Virus record (IMG/VR): IMGVR_UViG_2713896901_000010
DNA: 35,122 nt
DNA from: a virus
Lineage: Duplodnaviria > Heunggongvirae > Uroviricota > Caudoviricetes
Direction: 5' to 3' (one strand)
Shown: positions 1,931 through 22,958 of the stretch, in pieces
Numbering within the stretch: the stretch's first letter is position 1
How the letters are laid out: every line of letters starts with the position of its first letter
Position numbers and translations under genes: made by a program
Notes under the pieces: generated by a model
Databases searched by the model: none
The model's input: only the letters and a program-made list of their open reading frames with translations
What the model was told of the DNA's origin: nothing

Positions 1931-1956
1931 TTAAAAACAAGGCCGCGAAAGCGGCC
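1931..1956 (-). terminator. rho-independent terminator for the minus-strand ant gene
   Basis: On minus strand GGCCGC-tttc-GCGGCC followed by TTGTTTTT. Confidence 0.6.
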
Positions 1957-1957
1957 T

Positions 1958-1969
1958 GTGACATGTCAC
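1958..1969. repeat. 12-bp perfect palindrome GTGACATGTCAC (copy 1 of 2)
   Basis: Identical 12-mer recurs at 22609-22620; both copies sit just 5' of a minus-strand terminator. Confidence 0.5.
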
Positions 1970-1984
1970 GATAGTTCCGTTTTG

Positions 1985-2241
1985 CACATCCCTGTGCCGC
2001 CGTTCTGTCAGAAGAACCCTGCCTTGTCGTTGATGTACTCCGCGTGGGTCTGGATATCACGCAGGCACTTGCTCACACCGACGATGTAGCAGAACATGGT
2101 GGTCAGCTCCGCCGCCGCGCCCGATACATCGTGCCCGTCGTCCTGTAACTGGTTAAGCAGATTCATCAGCAGTGAGTTCTCCGTCAGGCCGAGAACACCC
2201 GACGGCGAATGAATCAGACTGCGGTAGCCGGGCTTCAGCGG
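1985..2241. repeat. inverted repeat arm 2 (partner of 994-1248)
   Basis: Reverse complement matches 994-1248 at ~95%. Confidence 0.8.
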
Positions 2242-2952
2242 ATAACCATAACATTTTGTCTGTGTTTTAATTGCCTCACGAAGCGCATCTAACATCTTGA
2301 CTGCCACTTCATCATTCTCTGATGCAGATCCAGCAGGGAGATGCTCCCCTTCAAGCGGAACCCGAGCAACAAGAGACAACGCTTCGGCGAATTGATCTTC
2401 ATCAATTTCTTTGTACGAACAGCCAAAATGAGATTTCAGTGACGACCACATGGTGATCATCGCCTTAGCCTGTTTTTCTTTTGGCAGAGACTGACCGCGA
2501 CTCATGACGAGTTGTTTAATGGCTTCCTGCTGTTCAGTGGTTATTTTACCCGGCAGCGCCTTTTTAGCTTTGCGTGGGTTAACCACATGGCCTTTAGTCC
2601 AGTACTCGTAGAGCACATCGTCACACTCTTCCTGATACTGGATTACCTTGTCGCGGATTTCAGGGCGGACTTTGTTAGGGCTGATGGTTTGCAACCAGCC
2701 AGCAAGTTTGCGAAGTGCCAAACAAATAATCTCACGGCGCTGTTCATCCCCAGGAAGCTGCATTGTGATTTTCACAATGCAGGTTTTAAACCGCTGCTTC
2801 ATTTTCGTAAACTGTGAAGCCCAATCCATACCCATGCCTTCAACGATAGGTTTCATTGGGGTGTACGGTTCTCCGTTGTGATTGACAACATAAAGTTCTG
2901 CGCCGTGGAATGGCACGTTGATAGTAGATACCGCTGTTGCTATACTCGCCAT
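2008..2952 (-). CDS. ant: antirepressor Ant (P22 Ant-like N-terminus plus shared C-terminal module)
   Basis: ATG 2952 with AGGA upstream; N-terminus ...INVPFHGAELYVVNHNGEPYTPMKPIVEGMG resembles P22 Ant ...SYVPFNGQQVRTVLIDGEPWF; sits downstream of arc as in P22 immI. Confidence 0.8.
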   Translation of the reverse strand: MASIATAVSTINVPFHGAELYVVNHNGEPYTPMKPIVEGMGMDWASQFTKMKQRFKTCIVKITMQLPGDEQRREIICLALRKLAGWLQTISPNKVRPEIRDKVIQYQEECDDVLYEYWTKGHVVNPRKAKKALPGKITTEQQEAIKQLVMSRGQSLPKEKQAKAMITMWSSLKSHFGCSYKEIDEDQFAEALSLVARVPLEGEHLPAGSASENDEVAVKMLDALREAIKTQTKCYGYPLKPGYRSLIHSPSGVLGLTENSLLMNLLNQLQDDGHDVSGAAAELTTMFCYIVGVSKCLRDIQTHAEYINDKAGFF

Positions 2953-3312: not shown

Positions 3313-3744
3313 ATGAGCAGAGAAGATCCACAACTAAGGATCAGACTTCCCGTTGAAGTAAAAGAAAAAATAGAAATTTCTGCAAAAGCCAATAAGCGAT
3401 CAATGAACGCTGAAATAGTACAACGTCTTGACACCAGCTTTCTGAAAGATATTCATGAAGATGACGTAATTTCTGCTTATGAAGCAAAAATTATTGCAAA
3501 CAATGCACGGCATGAAATATCAAATATTATTTTCAAAAGAACTTTTAATGAAATCAATAAGAAAATAACACTTGGACATACAAGTTTTTATATAAACCTT
3601 AATGACCTTGAACTGGAATCACTTGCAGATAATGATTACCAGATCATCTTTGAAAAAACATTTAATAAGCTCAATGAACTAGGTTACATCATCTGTGAAA
3701 ACTCATGGGATGCAGATGGTTTTGGAATTGAAATACCTGAATAG
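3313..3744 (+). CDS. mnt: Mnt-like RHH repressor with ~60-aa extra C-terminal extension
   Basis: ATG 3313 (table start 3283 is TTG); MSREDPQLRIRLPVEVKEKIEISAKANKRSMNAEIVQRL closely parallels P22 Mnt MARDDPHFNFRMPMEVREKLKFRAEANGRSMNSELLQIV; divergent from arc-ant as in P22. Confidence 0.8.
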   Translation: MSREDPQLRIRLPVEVKEKIEISAKANKRSMNAEIVQRLDTSFLKDIHEDDVISAYEAKIIANNARHEISNIIFKRTFNEINKKITLGHTSFYINLNDLELESLADNDYQIIFEKTFNKLNELGYIICENSWDADGFGIEIPE

Positions 3745-3786
3745 GAAGAACAAAAGGCGTGTACATATTACACGTCTTTAATACAA

Positions 3787-17167: not shown

Positions 17168-17460
17168 TCCTGTTCACTGGCCTCTTTGGCCATCTTCAAA
17201 TACTGTTCAGGGCAATGCGCCATAACGCGCTGAAACAGTTCCAGCGCCAGATTGCGTTGCCCCTCATTAAATGCCATTGCCATAGCGTCCATCGGTGAGA
17301 TAGCGGAAAACACACGGCCTTTCTCCAGCACCGACCAGACAACGCGACGCCCCTGTTCACTGCTCATGACAAAGCGAATGTCATCAATTTCACGCTGTGC
17401 CATGTCACGTTGCTTACGGGCGTTTTCTTCTTTCAGTTGATCGTCTTCGTAATCTGTCAT
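17164..17460 (-). CDS. hypothetical protein (98 aa)
   Basis: ATGA-type overlaps with portal stop and scaffold start. Confidence 0.45.
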   Translation of the reverse strand: MTDYEDDQLKEENARKQRDMAQREIDDIRFVMSSEQGRRVVWSVLEKGRVFSAISPMDAMAMAFNEGQRNLALELFQRVMAHCPEQYLKMAKEASEQE

Positions 17461-19462: not shown

Positions 19463-19784
19463 CCAAAGAGCTCATTCCGGTTACTAACCTGACTGGCTTG
19501 TCGTTAAATTGAACAGGTGGAGTGAGCTTTTATTTTGAGCAGTACGGCGTATGGCACATGCGACGATAGCGGTCTGGATACGTTTAAGGGGCACCCTCCC
19601 TTGCTCGGGCAAACGAACCAGGTAGCCGGAATGTGCAAGTCGAGCGGTTTTATTCCGCGCACGGGGATTAACCATCCCGGCGATTCGGTGTGACGCCTCG
19701 GAAGAGACGAGGGTACAACGATGAGAGCATTTATGGAGCCGCGACAAAGTGTGGCGCCTTAACAGGCTAAGTGCTCTCAGCGTT

Positions 19785-20118: not shown

Positions 20119-20418
20119 ATGAATGGTTGGAATAGAAAAAAGACTCAATATTTAGCTGAGTGCATCCACGAACACGAAAAAGCCGACGGAGTAACCTACG
20201 ATCCTAACGGTATGGTTAGCTACTGGAACACAAAATATAACCTCGTTCCGGCTGAACAGTTGCCAGCATTACAAAATCAGGTATCTCTCGAATTAGAAGC
20301 TCTACGCGGTGCTGAGACTAACCATGTAACAATTAGCAACATTGGTGCCGCTAAGTTTGGATTCGACTCTGTAATAGGGAATCATCTACCTAACTTCGAT
20401 CCGGAGCCAGTTAAGTAA
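20119..20418 (+). CDS. hypothetical protein (99 aa), moron between terL and portal
   Basis: ATG 20119 with AAGGAG at 6-nt spacing; opposite strand to all flanking late genes. Confidence 0.6.
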   Translation: MNGWNRKKTQYLAECIHEHEKADGVTYDPNGMVSYWNTKYNLVPAEQLPALQNQVSLELEALRGAETNHVTISNIGAAKFGFDSVIGNHLPNFDPEPVK

Positions 20419-20429
20419 TTTGCTGACCA

Positions 20430-21905
20430 TTATGCATAAGGGTCATAATCCGTTATGGCCCTTCCCTGCTGGCTTTGCTGTCCTGGTATATTTATGCGTT
20501 TCGACACCGGGAAAGCAAACGTCAGCAGTAGCGCATCGCCTTTACCCAGCGAACGCCCAAGACGCTCTTTGATATCTTCCTTCGGTTCGATAACGATTTT
20601 ACCGTCCACACGAACTTTGTACTCTGCCGCCGACAGGTCGTCTGCAGTTTCCTGGTCATCCAGCATGCCGCCCAGCCTCAGCCATGTCTTGCATGAATTG
20701 AACATCTCCCCACGCTTGTTGAGCATCTGCGGGTCAGTAGACGCGCCACCGAACGGAACAAGTTGCCATGTACGACCCCATCCGTCACCGATTGACTTCA
20801 GACCGGTTCCGTAACCGAAGTCGATGAACACCGCGTCAGCCTGGTACTGGTCTTCAAAGTCAGCGATACGCTTCGCCATAATCAGATCGTCAGTGGTCTT
20901 GTTGCCAGTCCACAGCACCTTACTGTGCAGCCCCTGCCTCAGGTATATCACCGCGTCATCAACGCCTGAGTATGCCGGGTCAACGCCGATTATCACCGGA
21001 GCATGTGCAACCTGCACAGCGGTTACCACCCGTTTCATTGCCTCGTCAGTAAGGCCGGTAGGGATAAACTGCAATTCAGATGCATCCGGGAATATGCCGC
21101 GCACACGGATTTTAACGAAGTCGCTGTCTTCCCCGTAGTCATCAACCCATTTCTGCAACTGCTGTTTGTTAGTGCCTTCCACCGTCCGGCTGTCAATCTG
21201 CGCAGTTTTCCAGCGGTGTTTATATTTGCGGAAACATTCGCGGAAACGTCCGGTGTTACGTGTAGGGTTTCCAAACGCCACCCAGATAATCTCAGTGTCT
21301 TCGTCCGTAAGCGCACCCTCAGCAACTTCCCACACCAGATCCGCAATGTTCGACGCTTCATCGAATACCACGATGATGCGTTTGCGCTCGTTGTGTAGTC
21401 CGGCGAATGCCTCAGTGTTGTGCTCAGACCAGGGGATTGCGTCAGCTCGCCACCGCTTGTCGTGCCCAGGGTCATTGCTGTACATCGCGGTAGCGGTACA
21501 GGTAAACCAGTCTTTCGTGATAGCAAGGTTCGACCACTTGATAATTTCCGGCCAGGTCTTCGTTCGTAGCTGGTTGTCGGTGTTGGCGGTCACCACGACC
21601 TTACAATCCTCGCAAGTGGACATGCCCCAGTTGATCAGCATTGAGATGAATGCGGATTTACCAATACCGTGACCAGAAGCGCGTGCCAGCATAAGCGGCT
21701 GATAGCGCGTCTCTGGATTCTGCAGGTGATCACGTATCTCTCGGAACGCATCAGCCTGCCACTGACGTGGGCCGGTAGCATGTGCCAGTTCAGTCCCCTC
21801 TTCCCCCCAAGGGAACGCATAGAGGGCATAGCCAAGCGGATCGTGAGTGAACCCTGCAATATCCTCGATTAACTGCTCTTCAGGAGATAACGCTGTATCT
21901 GTCAC
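20430..21905 (-). CDS. terL: terminase large subunit (491 aa)
   Basis: GTG start overlapping terS stop (GTGA); Walker-A-like ARASGHGIGKS near N-terminus; size and position. Confidence 0.9.
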   Translation of the reverse strand: MTDTALSPEEQLIEDIAGFTHDPLGYALYAFPWGEEGTELAHATGPRQWQADAFREIRDHLQNPETRYQPLMLARASGHGIGKSAFISMLINWGMSTCEDCKVVVTANTDNQLRTKTWPEIIKWSNLAITKDWFTCTATAMYSNDPGHDKRWRADAIPWSEHNTEAFAGLHNERKRIIVVFDEASNIADLVWEVAEGALTDEDTEIIWVAFGNPTRNTGRFRECFRKYKHRWKTAQIDSRTVEGTNKQQLQKWVDDYGEDSDFVKIRVRGIFPDASELQFIPTGLTDEAMKRVVTAVQVAHAPVIIGVDPAYSGVDDAVIYLRQGLHSKVLWTGNKTTDDLIMAKRIADFEDQYQADAVFIDFGYGTGLKSIGDGWGRTWQLVPFGGASTDPQMLNKRGEMFNSCKTWLRLGGMLDDQETADDLSAAEYKVRVDGKIVIEPKEDIKERLGRSLGKGDALLLTFAFPVSKRINIPGQQSQQGRAITDYDPYA

Positions 21906-22498
21906 TGATTGCCATCCTGACGTTCTTTGAGTCGCTTCCTGGCTGCTGCTATGCGATCAGCAATTGTCACACTCACATTAACATCCAGGCGTTCTTTGAA
22001 TGCGTTGACGTCGACGTGCTTACCAATCAGTTCGAGGTTCTTCACCTTGTCAGGCCACTTAATTTTTTTGAGGATTGTCTCTATCGAATCCTCGTTCATG
22101 TTCATGATGGTCGATGACAGATCAAAGCCGCTAAGCGTAGTGCGCCAGATTTTCGGCCACTCGCGGATTGGTTTAAGGCTCCCATCGTCGTTGAGGATGT
22201 CGATCACGTCCATCTGGTCGATCTCCACCAGGCGCATGAGAACGTAATCAGCACTGACGCGCATTCGTTTGTTGCGCTCCTCCATCAACTCGGCAATCCG
22301 TTTCTGAATGCGTTCATCGCGCATCATGACACTGGCTTTAACTGCCGCTGTATTTGGGGAGAATCCTGCGTTAATCGCTGCCTGAGTCTGGTTTTCAGGC
22401 GTTTTGATGTATGACTGGCAATAAGCCTCCTGCATTGCTGTTAGTGGCTTAAATTGCGTTGATTTGCGTTTATAGGTTTTAGGTTCAGCAGGCATCAT
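21902..22498 (-). CDS. terS: terminase small subunit (~197 aa)
   Basis: Immediately upstream of and overlapping terL; basic helical N-terminal region; likely start is the ATG pair 22498/22495 rather than table TTG 22576. Confidence 0.75.
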   Translation of the reverse strand: MMPAEPKTYKRKSTQFKPLTAMQEAYCQSYIKTPENQTQAAINAGFSPNTAAVKASVMMRDERIQKRIAELMEERNKRMRVSADYVLMRLVEIDQMDVIDILNDDGSLKPIREWPKIWRTTLSGFDLSSTIMNMNEDSIETILKKIKWPDKVKNLELIGKHVDVNAFKERLDVNVSVTIADRIAAARKRLKERQDGNQ

Positions 22499-22530
22499 AA
22501 CCACCGTGGTAATAGTTACCGTTGTGGTAA
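22498..22530. promoter_or_regulatory. tandem operator dyads upstream of terS (sites D2 and D1)
   Basis: 22516-22530 ttacc gttgt ggtaa (10/10); 22498-22512 taacc accgt ggtaa (9/10) overlapping the terS start codon and GGTGG RBS. Confidence 0.55.
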
Positions 22531-22540
22531 TAGTACCATG

Positions 22541-22567
22541 CAAAATAAAGCCGCCATAGTTGGCGGC
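22541..22567 (-). terminator. rho-independent terminator upstream of the late operon
   Basis: On minus strand GCCGCCA-acta-TGGCGGC followed by TTTATTTTG. Confidence 0.65.
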
Positions 22568-22608
22568 AGTATTCAAAACACATCAAATTCATCATGCATA
22601 ACCTACTC

Positions 22609-22620
22609 GTGACATGTCAC
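22609..22620. repeat. 12-bp perfect palindrome GTGACATGTCAC (copy 2 of 2)
   Basis: Identical to 1958-1969; overlaps stop codon of 22617-22958. Confidence 0.5.
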
Positions 22621-22958
22621 ACTATTAATTTCGTTTCATGCCAGCCTTTAGTCACCCAGCATTGCGAGTCACCATTGCACGGGCATGAATTAACTGGAAC
22701 TCTCTCGCCGCACTTACCGCAACGTTTTCTGCTGATCGATTTTATACGCCCGTGCACGCGAGCATCATCCTGGCGGATAAGTAACGCAATATACTCACCA
22801 AATTCGTAAGGCACACGCCCGGGGCGACGCGTGGCACAGTTACGCTCCAGCATTTCAATTTCCTGAGCATCAAGCACAATCTCCAGCTTACGTACACCGG
22901 ATGCAGCTTGTCTGGCTCTCTGAGCGGCTTTGCGCTCTGCTGCTGATTTAGCCATCAA
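22617..22958 (-). CDS. hypothetical protein with C-terminal Cys4 cluster (113 aa)
   Basis: AGGTG RBS before ATG pair at 22958; C-terminal CGKCGERVPVNSCPCNG suggests a zinc ribbon. Confidence 0.5.
   Translation of the reverse strand: MMAKSAAERKAAQRARQAASGVRKLEIVLDAQEIEMLERNCATRRPGRVPYEFGEYIALLIRQDDARVHGRIKSISRKRCGKCGERVPVNSCPCNGDSQCWVTKGWHETKLIV

Follow-up and report, generated by a model that had tools for sequence, protein, structure and literature searches.

A 12-bp palindrome at gene and operon ends of a Uetakevirus-type phage and of unrelated temperate phages, a candidate protein-binding site

The stretch of DNA that was analysed, called the window in the following, is 35,122 nt long and represents an epsilon15/phiV10-type phage or prophage (Uetakevirus). 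Its closest relative is TL-2011b, with 96.5% identity across the first 6 kb. The 12-bp palindrome GTGACATGTCAC occurs in the window as an exact sequence at 1958-1969 and 22609-22620 only. The genes, terminators and other features found beside these two copies are the following:

1940 to 1957, minus strand: intrinsic terminator AGGCCGCTTTCGCGGCCT followed by TGTTTTT, from the terminator scan; directly 3' of copy 1 on the minus-strand transcript
1958 to 1969: palindrome copy 1, GTGACATGTCAC, exact match; the 14-mer TGTGACATGTCACG is on the plus strand
2008 to 2952, minus strand: ant, P22-type antirepressor (Pfam P22_AR_N, E 9.6e-45); last minus-strand gene before copy 1
21902 to 22576, minus strand: terS (Pfam Terminase_2, E 1.5e-29; ORF list)
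22550 to 22567, minus strand: intrinsic terminator GCCGCCAACTATGGCGGC followed by TTTATTTT, from the terminator scan; between copy 2 and terS
22573 to 22599, minus strand: 8-codon remnant ORF (ATGCATGATGAATTTGATGTGTTTTGA; MHDEFDVF*), from the alignment with contig L006 (1850-2060) and the tabulated loci
22609 to 22620: palindrome copy 2, exact match; the 14-mer TGTGACATGTCACG is on the minus strand; perfect in 75 of 80 close relatives
22617 to 22955, minus strand: gene for a Cys-rich protein of 112 aa (“Cys4” protein), phrog_536; homologue of epsilon15 gp49 and N15 gp46

A long run of minus-strand virion ORFs lies between both palindromes; it starts with terS and has the gene order of phiV10 p01-p21. 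Copy 2 separates the end of the early-right operon from terS, and copy 1 closes the virion-gene block after ant, the homologue of which is annotated as “anti-repressor Ant” in TL-2011b. As the initial annotation had it, each copy is located 5' of a minus-strand intrinsic terminator. Copy 1 abuts the hairpin at 1957→1940, and copy 2 is 41 nt away from the one at 22567→22550, which is kept in epsilon15, PAT1 and phiV10. The accompanying statement that both copies overlap or abut the 3' end of a minus-strand gene applies to copy 2, which contains the stop codon TGA of the Cys4 ORF (22617-22619), but not to copy 1, since the ant stop at 2008 is 38 nt upstream and thus near the palindrome without touching it. 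When the RNA is folded, the palindrome forms a 4-bp hairpin of its own beside the terminator hairpin. With such a short stem and no U-tract it was rejected as an intrinsic terminator, the true terminators being the adjacent hairpins. In about 20 of the 80 relatives, a full small ORF of ~70 codons is found between palindrome and terminator, so the 8-codon ORF of the window is apparently a remnant that resulted from an internal deletion.

Two further sequence elements are present in the vicinity. A second 12-bp palindrome, CCGCCCGGGCGG, occurs once in the window, at 1907, between back-to-back terminators (plus strand, 1870-1888; minus strand, 1957-1940). A TTACC dyad, GGTAnnnTTACC, is present in two copies at 22500-22540, just upstream of terS. 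By position and flanking sequence this dyad matches an annotated “repressor” binding site of epsilon15 (12-27), and the earlier view that the palindrome is a different motif from the dyad is upheld. The epsilon15 record lists more “repressor” sites before gp3 and before the tail-fibre gene; together, these sites suggest direct repression of the late operons by the prophage repressor.

Two identical 12-mers had initially been considered unlikely in 35 kb, an argument that did not survive simulation: 93-122 repeated 12-mers were found per Markov-simulated sequence of this length, and the window itself contains 305. A repeated 12-mer that is also palindromic was seen in only 1-2.7% of the simulations. 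The identity of the two copies, which was described as 12 bp, really extends through the flanks to 14 nt (TGTGACATGTCACG, plus strand at site 1 and minus strand at site 2). A copy with a single mismatch, GTGCCATGTCAC, is found within a coding region at 17397-17408, and none of 100 shuffles of the window reached three or more matches at up to one mismatch. Taken by itself, the window thus provides a hint but no strong case. The decisive evidence against chance is the conservation of the palindrome in relatives. By chance, ~0.3 copies of the 12-mer would be expected per 4.6 Mb, and 0.04 GTGAC-N2-GTCAC sites per phage genome.

A search of related phages recovered the motif at homologous positions. 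Epsilon15, with ~75% nucleotide identity here, has exactly three perfect copies (P ~2e-9), all of them in the order stop codon, palindrome, terminator. One copy coincides with the stop codon of the Cys4 homologue gp49; a terminator follows 23 nt later, and then an annotated repressor-binding site and terS. Another is situated between the stop of the convergent p50 and the p50 terminator, just after terL. The remaining one is placed where the structural operon ends, on the stop codon of its last gene, gp18, with just 1 nt between palindrome and terminator. The same three places and the same order were recovered in phiV10, which has two perfect copies and an imperfect one (GTGACATGTTAC). The terminator-plus-palindrome unit of copy 1 is identical in phiV10 and TL-2011b, and in phiV10 it is retained behind a different last gene, p21 in place of ant. 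The window does not have the third copy after terL; instead, a different convergent ORF of 99 aa (20119-20430) abuts the terL stop with no terminator between the two. For the locus of copy 2, a protein search in IMG/VR yielded 80 relatives, 75 with the perfect 12-mer, four with one mismatch, and one in which the site is cut by the contig end. The copy is kept in relatives at 70-75% nucleotide identity. It is perfect in Salmonella PAT1 and in a Klebsiella prophage and has one mismatch in Enterobacter BUCT554; in E. coli phage Chlobot, where the stop codon is 9 nt upstream, it is nevertheless perfect. The suggestion that the palindrome is a conserved 3'-end element next to a terminator is therefore in agreement with all three copies of epsilon15 and with phiV10, but the link to terminators does not extend beyond Uetakevirus: in N15, ZF40, K303 and P2-like phages, copies are found before ribosome-binding sites, inside genes, or far from terminators.

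What is found downstream of the motif differs among relatives and can be the small ORF of ~70 codons, genes with a LexA box, or a terminator. A LexA-box-like TACTGT-N8-ACAGTA together with a promoter-like sequence is present in genes inserted right after the palindrome in BUCT554 (L088, 1190-1260), the Klebsiella prophage (L089, 1140-1200) and N15 (L211, 3060-3080), and in Chlobot an annotated UmuD-like protein adjoins the Cys4 homologue. When IMG/VR was scanned with the 14-mer, terminator hairpin, palindrome and convergent-gene 3' end recurred as a unit, in which the hairpin (at least five different ones) and the gene (many different ones) both vary. The BLAST matches of the window to many relatives end exactly at 1970, which places copy 1 at a mosaic junction. 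The region coding for the C-terminus of ant (window 2008-2100) is inverted in phiV10 (3640-3750), on the far side of the terminator-palindrome unit, where the Bro-N “anti-immunity” gene region ends. A past inversion or exchange across the palindrome is one possible reason. The motif marks swap points of accessory genes (ant, UmuD-like genes, small ORFs) in prophages of E. coli O157, Salmonella and Klebsiella.

Several kinds of matches from the IMG/VR scan were set aside. These were iteron-like GTCACG/CGTGAC arrays in replication-initiator-like genes of high-GC phages, V-T-C-H codons in the zinc finger of lambda-type Q genes, and R-D-M-S codons at the start of other Q-like genes. The arrays, which are dense series of half-sites, are found in contigs L157 (1900-2000), L109 (10760-10860), L195, L138 and L128.

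Beyond the genus, the element can be described as GTGAC-N2-GTCAC with a preference for T before and a purine after it (consensus T-GTGAC-NN-GTCAC-R). Seven phage sequences with a Cys4 gene (278 kb), which include N15, ZF40, Vibrio phage K303 and a P2-like Yersinia phage, contain 17 such sites, compared with 0.27 expected. Each of the other spacers from 0 to 8 gave 0-1 sites in the same sequences, and the everted arrangement gave 0-2. The arms do not vary, whereas the centre is lineage-specific (AT, TG, GC, AC or CT) and mostly uniform within a genome: N15 has three identical 14-mers, and epsilon15 and ZF40 have AT three times each. K303 is an exception, with AC twice and GC once. The abundance of repeated 12-mers in 35 kb would be in line with a chance repeat that has no function. 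However, the enrichment in a single spacer class, the conservation across genera and the P value for epsilon15 leave this explanation with a negligible probability.

In most cases, one copy of the motif overlaps the stop codon of the Cys4-family gene. Gene 46 of N15 (35% identity to the Cys4 protein) ends in CGTGACTGGTCACG, a 14-mer of which this phage has three copies, with coordinates 28549, 33236 and 39268; besides the one at the gene end, there is a copy after gene 33 and another inside repA. One N15 copy is between gene 33 and the annotated repressor/antirepressor genes 32-30. N15 and phiKO2 carry GTGACTGGTCACG at the stop codon of the family gene, and the P2-like Yersinia phage (42% identity) has GTGACGCGTCAC on it. 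In the P2-like group, 51 of the 53 loci identified by protein search have the motif at the gene end, including a subgroup in which the stop is 8 nt upstream. In the myovirus ZF40, GTGACATGTCAC follows the TAA stop after 2 nt, and two further perfect copies are present. In Vibrio phage K303 (31% identity), GTGAC-N2-GTCAC is found three times, in one case 20 nt ahead of the start codon of terS; the copy nearest to the family gene is 226 nt away from it. Altogether, the motif was present in 101 of 110 distinct 3' contexts, a set that is partly biased in that some loci were found via the motif. Some family members have no motif at the 3' end (L115, L122, L275, L277). The linkage of motif and gene spans podo-, sipho- and myoviruses, and the motif persists when the stop codon moves. 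The searchable literature yielded no relevant paper on the 12-mer or its variants. The palindrome is apparently a copy of a previously undescribed signal at the gene or operon ends of many unrelated temperate phages of enteric bacteria and vibrios.

The family of the Cys4 protein, phrog_536, is annotated as “transcriptional regulator”, a label for which we found no experimental basis. Homologues occur in very different phages; there are 712 cluster representatives at E<=0.001, nearly all of which are named “hypothetical”. The Cys4 protein had no match in Pfam at E<=0.01, none among the PDB sequences or in PADLOC, no significant hit with Foldseek, and no similarity to Q families. NCBIfam delivered one weak match (E 0.08), and an hhalign comparison with MatP gave a probability of 0.1, which is not significant. 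An AlphaFold model (pLDDT 72) consists of a basic N-terminal helix, an extended segment, two helices and a Cys-rich loop region. The Cys-rich loop region is probably a zinc ribbon, and a ribbon-helix-helix domain is possible for the N-terminal part. From lineage to lineage, the putative beta-strand changes its residues together with the centre of the site, a correlation that comprises only about three independent lineages.

With invariant arms, a free centre, rigid spacing and few dispersed copies, the palindrome bears the signature of a site for a dimeric DNA-binding protein. The initial annotation had proposed the site of a second factor, and the sequence characteristics (a fixed spacing around a free 2-nt centre, two to three copies per genome) make it probable that the palindrome is indeed a protein-binding site and not a coincidence. 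Due to the tight linkage of the motif to the Cys4 gene, the product of this gene is a candidate for the binder, and the most likely one. Our favoured reading, to which we assign a probability of roughly 0.45, is that the palindrome is an operator of the Cys4 protein, with its putative ribbon-helix-helix fold, and serves as a transcription roadblock or insulator at operon boundaries. The protein would bind the copies of T-GTGAC-NN-GTCAC-R, including the one that touches the stop codon of its own gene, and in the bound state it would act much like a stoperator: where operons meet, beside the intrinsic terminators, it would bring transcription to a halt or keep neighbouring transcription units apart. 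Since the copies are located within or at the ends of transcription units and not at promoters, and in Uetakevirus immediately before terminators, an elongation roadblock or insulator that reinforces operon boundaries would be the most economical model. A gene 3' end would be an unusual placement for an operator.

Binding by the Cys4 protein is called into question by AsXd-1, a complete phage of 39 kb that has two perfect copies of the motif and no family gene even at E<=10. One of the two overlaps the stop of a Cro-like gene that immediately precedes the replication gene, a position of the motif that recurs in other lambdoid contexts. The other is in the zinc-finger codons of a lambda-type Q gene and is explained by those codons. 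Copies without a family gene make it possible that another binder exists, either in the host or in the phage. The labelling of AsXd-1 as an Aeromonas phage may need checking, as 451 nt of it match an IMG/VR contig of lambdoid gene order (L193) at 99.6% identity.

Such another binder could be a host DNA-binding protein of Enterobacterales and Vibrionales (MatP-like or another dimer), or it could be a protein that differs from phage to phage, with the Cys4 gene merely adjacent to one of the copies. Apart from AsXd-1, this explanation can draw on the motifs at Cro-replication junctions in lambdoid loci that have no family gene within -8/+13 kb, and on the occurrence of the same arms, which are those of matS (GTGACRNYGTCAC), in phages of Escherichia, Salmonella, Klebsiella, Yersinia, Pectobacterium and Vibrio. 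A host factor would, however, leave unexplained why a copy follows the Cys4 gene in 51 of 53 and in ~79 of 80 loci from the protein searches despite the moving stop, and why most copies of a genome have a lineage-specific centre in common. MatP itself is probably not the binder, since the spacer of the conserved sites is always 2 and never the 3 of matS, and since prophages avoid matS: 500 Escherichia and Salmonella prophages contain no true matS site, apparently as a result of counter-selection (PMC3603311). We regard a different binder as unlikely overall, though as more probable than the other alternatives. An element that acts in the RNA, where the transcribed palindrome would form a hairpin that aids termination, mRNA stability or translational coupling, seems improbable to us. 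All Uetakevirus copies are transcribed, and a terminator hairpin follows them after 1-5 nt (41 nt at copy 2), with the predicted 4-bp hairpin beside it, and the motif contains TGA, often also ATG, with a ribosome-binding site often immediately after it. Yet the arms are invariant without compensatory changes, the stem has only 4-5 bp, the region of copy 2 folds no better than its shuffles (z -1.6), and the copies of N15, ZF40 and K303 are inside genes or far from terminators.

The mosaic surroundings could also be taken as the mark of a recombination linker or “boundary sequence”; at such a joint, short and conserved, phages would exchange modules. Homology breaks at the edge of the palindrome, many BLAST matches ending at 1970. 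The same terminator-palindrome unit is flanked by at least eight different genes and the same palindrome by several terminators, and accessory genes (“morons”) have been inserted beside copy 2 in relatives. But junctions are to be expected beside any conserved functional site, and fixed arms, a free centre and fixed spacing are the signature of a binding site. We judge 12 bp to be too short for efficient homologous exchange, the motif is also found in phages without any flanking homology, and the boundary sequence after ant in phage CUS-3 (bsq1) does not contain it; we give the linker little chance. Even less can be said for the antiterminator loading site that was initially suggested. The Cys4 protein would then work much like Q, contacting RNA polymerase at the palindrome so that it passes the terminator and continues into terS. 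The order of small zinc-finger gene, site, terminator and late genes does resemble the lambda arrangement Q-PR'-tR', and the window has a promoter-like GTGACA-N18-CATGAT on the minus strand (22620→22591; 9/12 match, with the palindrome as -35). No equivalent of this match was seen in the relatives inspected by eye, for which reason a promoter -35 element was also rejected as the function of the palindrome. The annotated repressor-binding site of epsilon15 is between terminator and terS, which suggests that terS has a repressor-controlled promoter of its own. N15 and ZF40, which have both motif and gene, possess separate Q-like antiterminators elsewhere, and the Cys4 protein is not similar to the Q families. 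Two of three Uetakevirus copies precede terminators between convergent genes, where read-through would produce only antisense RNA. Antitermination at the palindrome is thus very improbable.

A packaging site was rejected as well. The phiV10 record is cut inside the palindrome, right after the stop of the last annotated gene, which could point to a cos or pac end, but we read this as a numbering convention. The large terminase of phiV10 is annotated as similar to P1 PacB, which we take to indicate headful packaging.

A more far-reaching version of the favoured Cys4 operator would be a small, self-contained system of gene plus site in many temperate phages of the clade of bacteria that has MatP. 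Here, a MatP-like protein with ribbon-helix-helix and zinc-ribbon parts would act on matS-like palindromes shortened by one base. These sites would bracket the packaging and structural operons (elsewhere the replication and immunity operons) and the bound protein would bridge or insulate them, as a chromosome-organising or elongation-blocking device that is orthogonal to host MatP via the spacer length. We consider this version doubtful. Should the operator reading hold, a widespread and mostly “hypothetical” family would have a DNA site of its own, and a function that can be tested. The reading would also mean that epsilon15/phiV10-, N15- and ZF40-type as well as P2-like phages have a layer of control that is absent from the annotations we have seen, with a symmetric site at operon ends and not at promoters.

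Among the closest known systems is that of the host protein MatP, which has a ribbon-helix-helix domain. The matS consensus is the 13-bp GTGACRNYGTCAC with a 3-nt spacer (PMC6907758). The arms of the phage motif are identical to it and the spacer is one base shorter, all 17 sites having a spacer of 2; moreover, matS is located in the Ter region of the host, whereas the phage motif is at gene ends in phage genomes. The sole spacer-3 site in the seven sequences, GTGACACCGTCAC at 19491 of K303, fits the true matS consensus and is unrelated to the conserved positions. The resemblance may reflect a related mode of recognition, and identical arms with a spacer that differs by one base provide a clean test case for the separation of host and phage binding systems. 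In the Arc, Mnt, CopG, MetJ and antitoxin systems, a small ribbon-helix-helix protein is likewise paired with a short palindrome beside its own gene. The fold is only a possible one for the Cys4 protein, which has an additional C-terminal Cys-rich region. Its sites, although palindromic, mark gene 3' ends and operon ends; the placement at a regulated promoter that is typical of such operators was not found, none of the sites being at a conserved promoter.

The SopB centromere sites of N15, TGCGACCnnGGTCGCA, are also short palindromes with a 2-nt centre that are dispersed at or in genes. They were rejected as an explanation because the four of them (core GCGACC-N2-GGTCGC; 33481, 35932, 41126, 45563) differ in sequence and position from the three CGTGACTGGTCACG copies. 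In contrast to the SopB system of N15, integration of the window depends on an integrase, as in phiV10, for which no partition genes are annotated. What the lambda Q/QBE-qut system and the Cys4 locus have in common is the succession of zinc-finger gene, site and terminator ahead of the late genes, but the palindrome has no conserved promoter or pause element and the Cys4 protein no homology to Q, and genuine Q genes are present in N15 and ZF40. The boundary sequences of lambdoid phages (bsq of CUS-3, also known from HK620) are likewise conserved at mosaic junctions. The palindrome, which is absent from CUS-3 bsq1, is far shorter than these and has two symmetric arms with a free centre.

Stoperators are asymmetric and orientation-dependent, number ~20-30 per genome and are bound by the prophage repressor, whereas the phage palindrome is symmetric and present in 1-3 copies, and the prophage repressor here has another operator, the TTACC dyad. 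In their mechanism they are nevertheless the closest precedent for the proposed roadblock. Mycobacteriophage repressors stop elongation at genome-wide stoperators, and those of Cluster A (L5 gp71-type) are likewise inside transcribed regions, often at short gene junctions (PMC9283540). The palindrome has the same placement, with sites inside transcription units at gene junctions in epsilon15, phiV10, N15, ZF40, K303 and the window.
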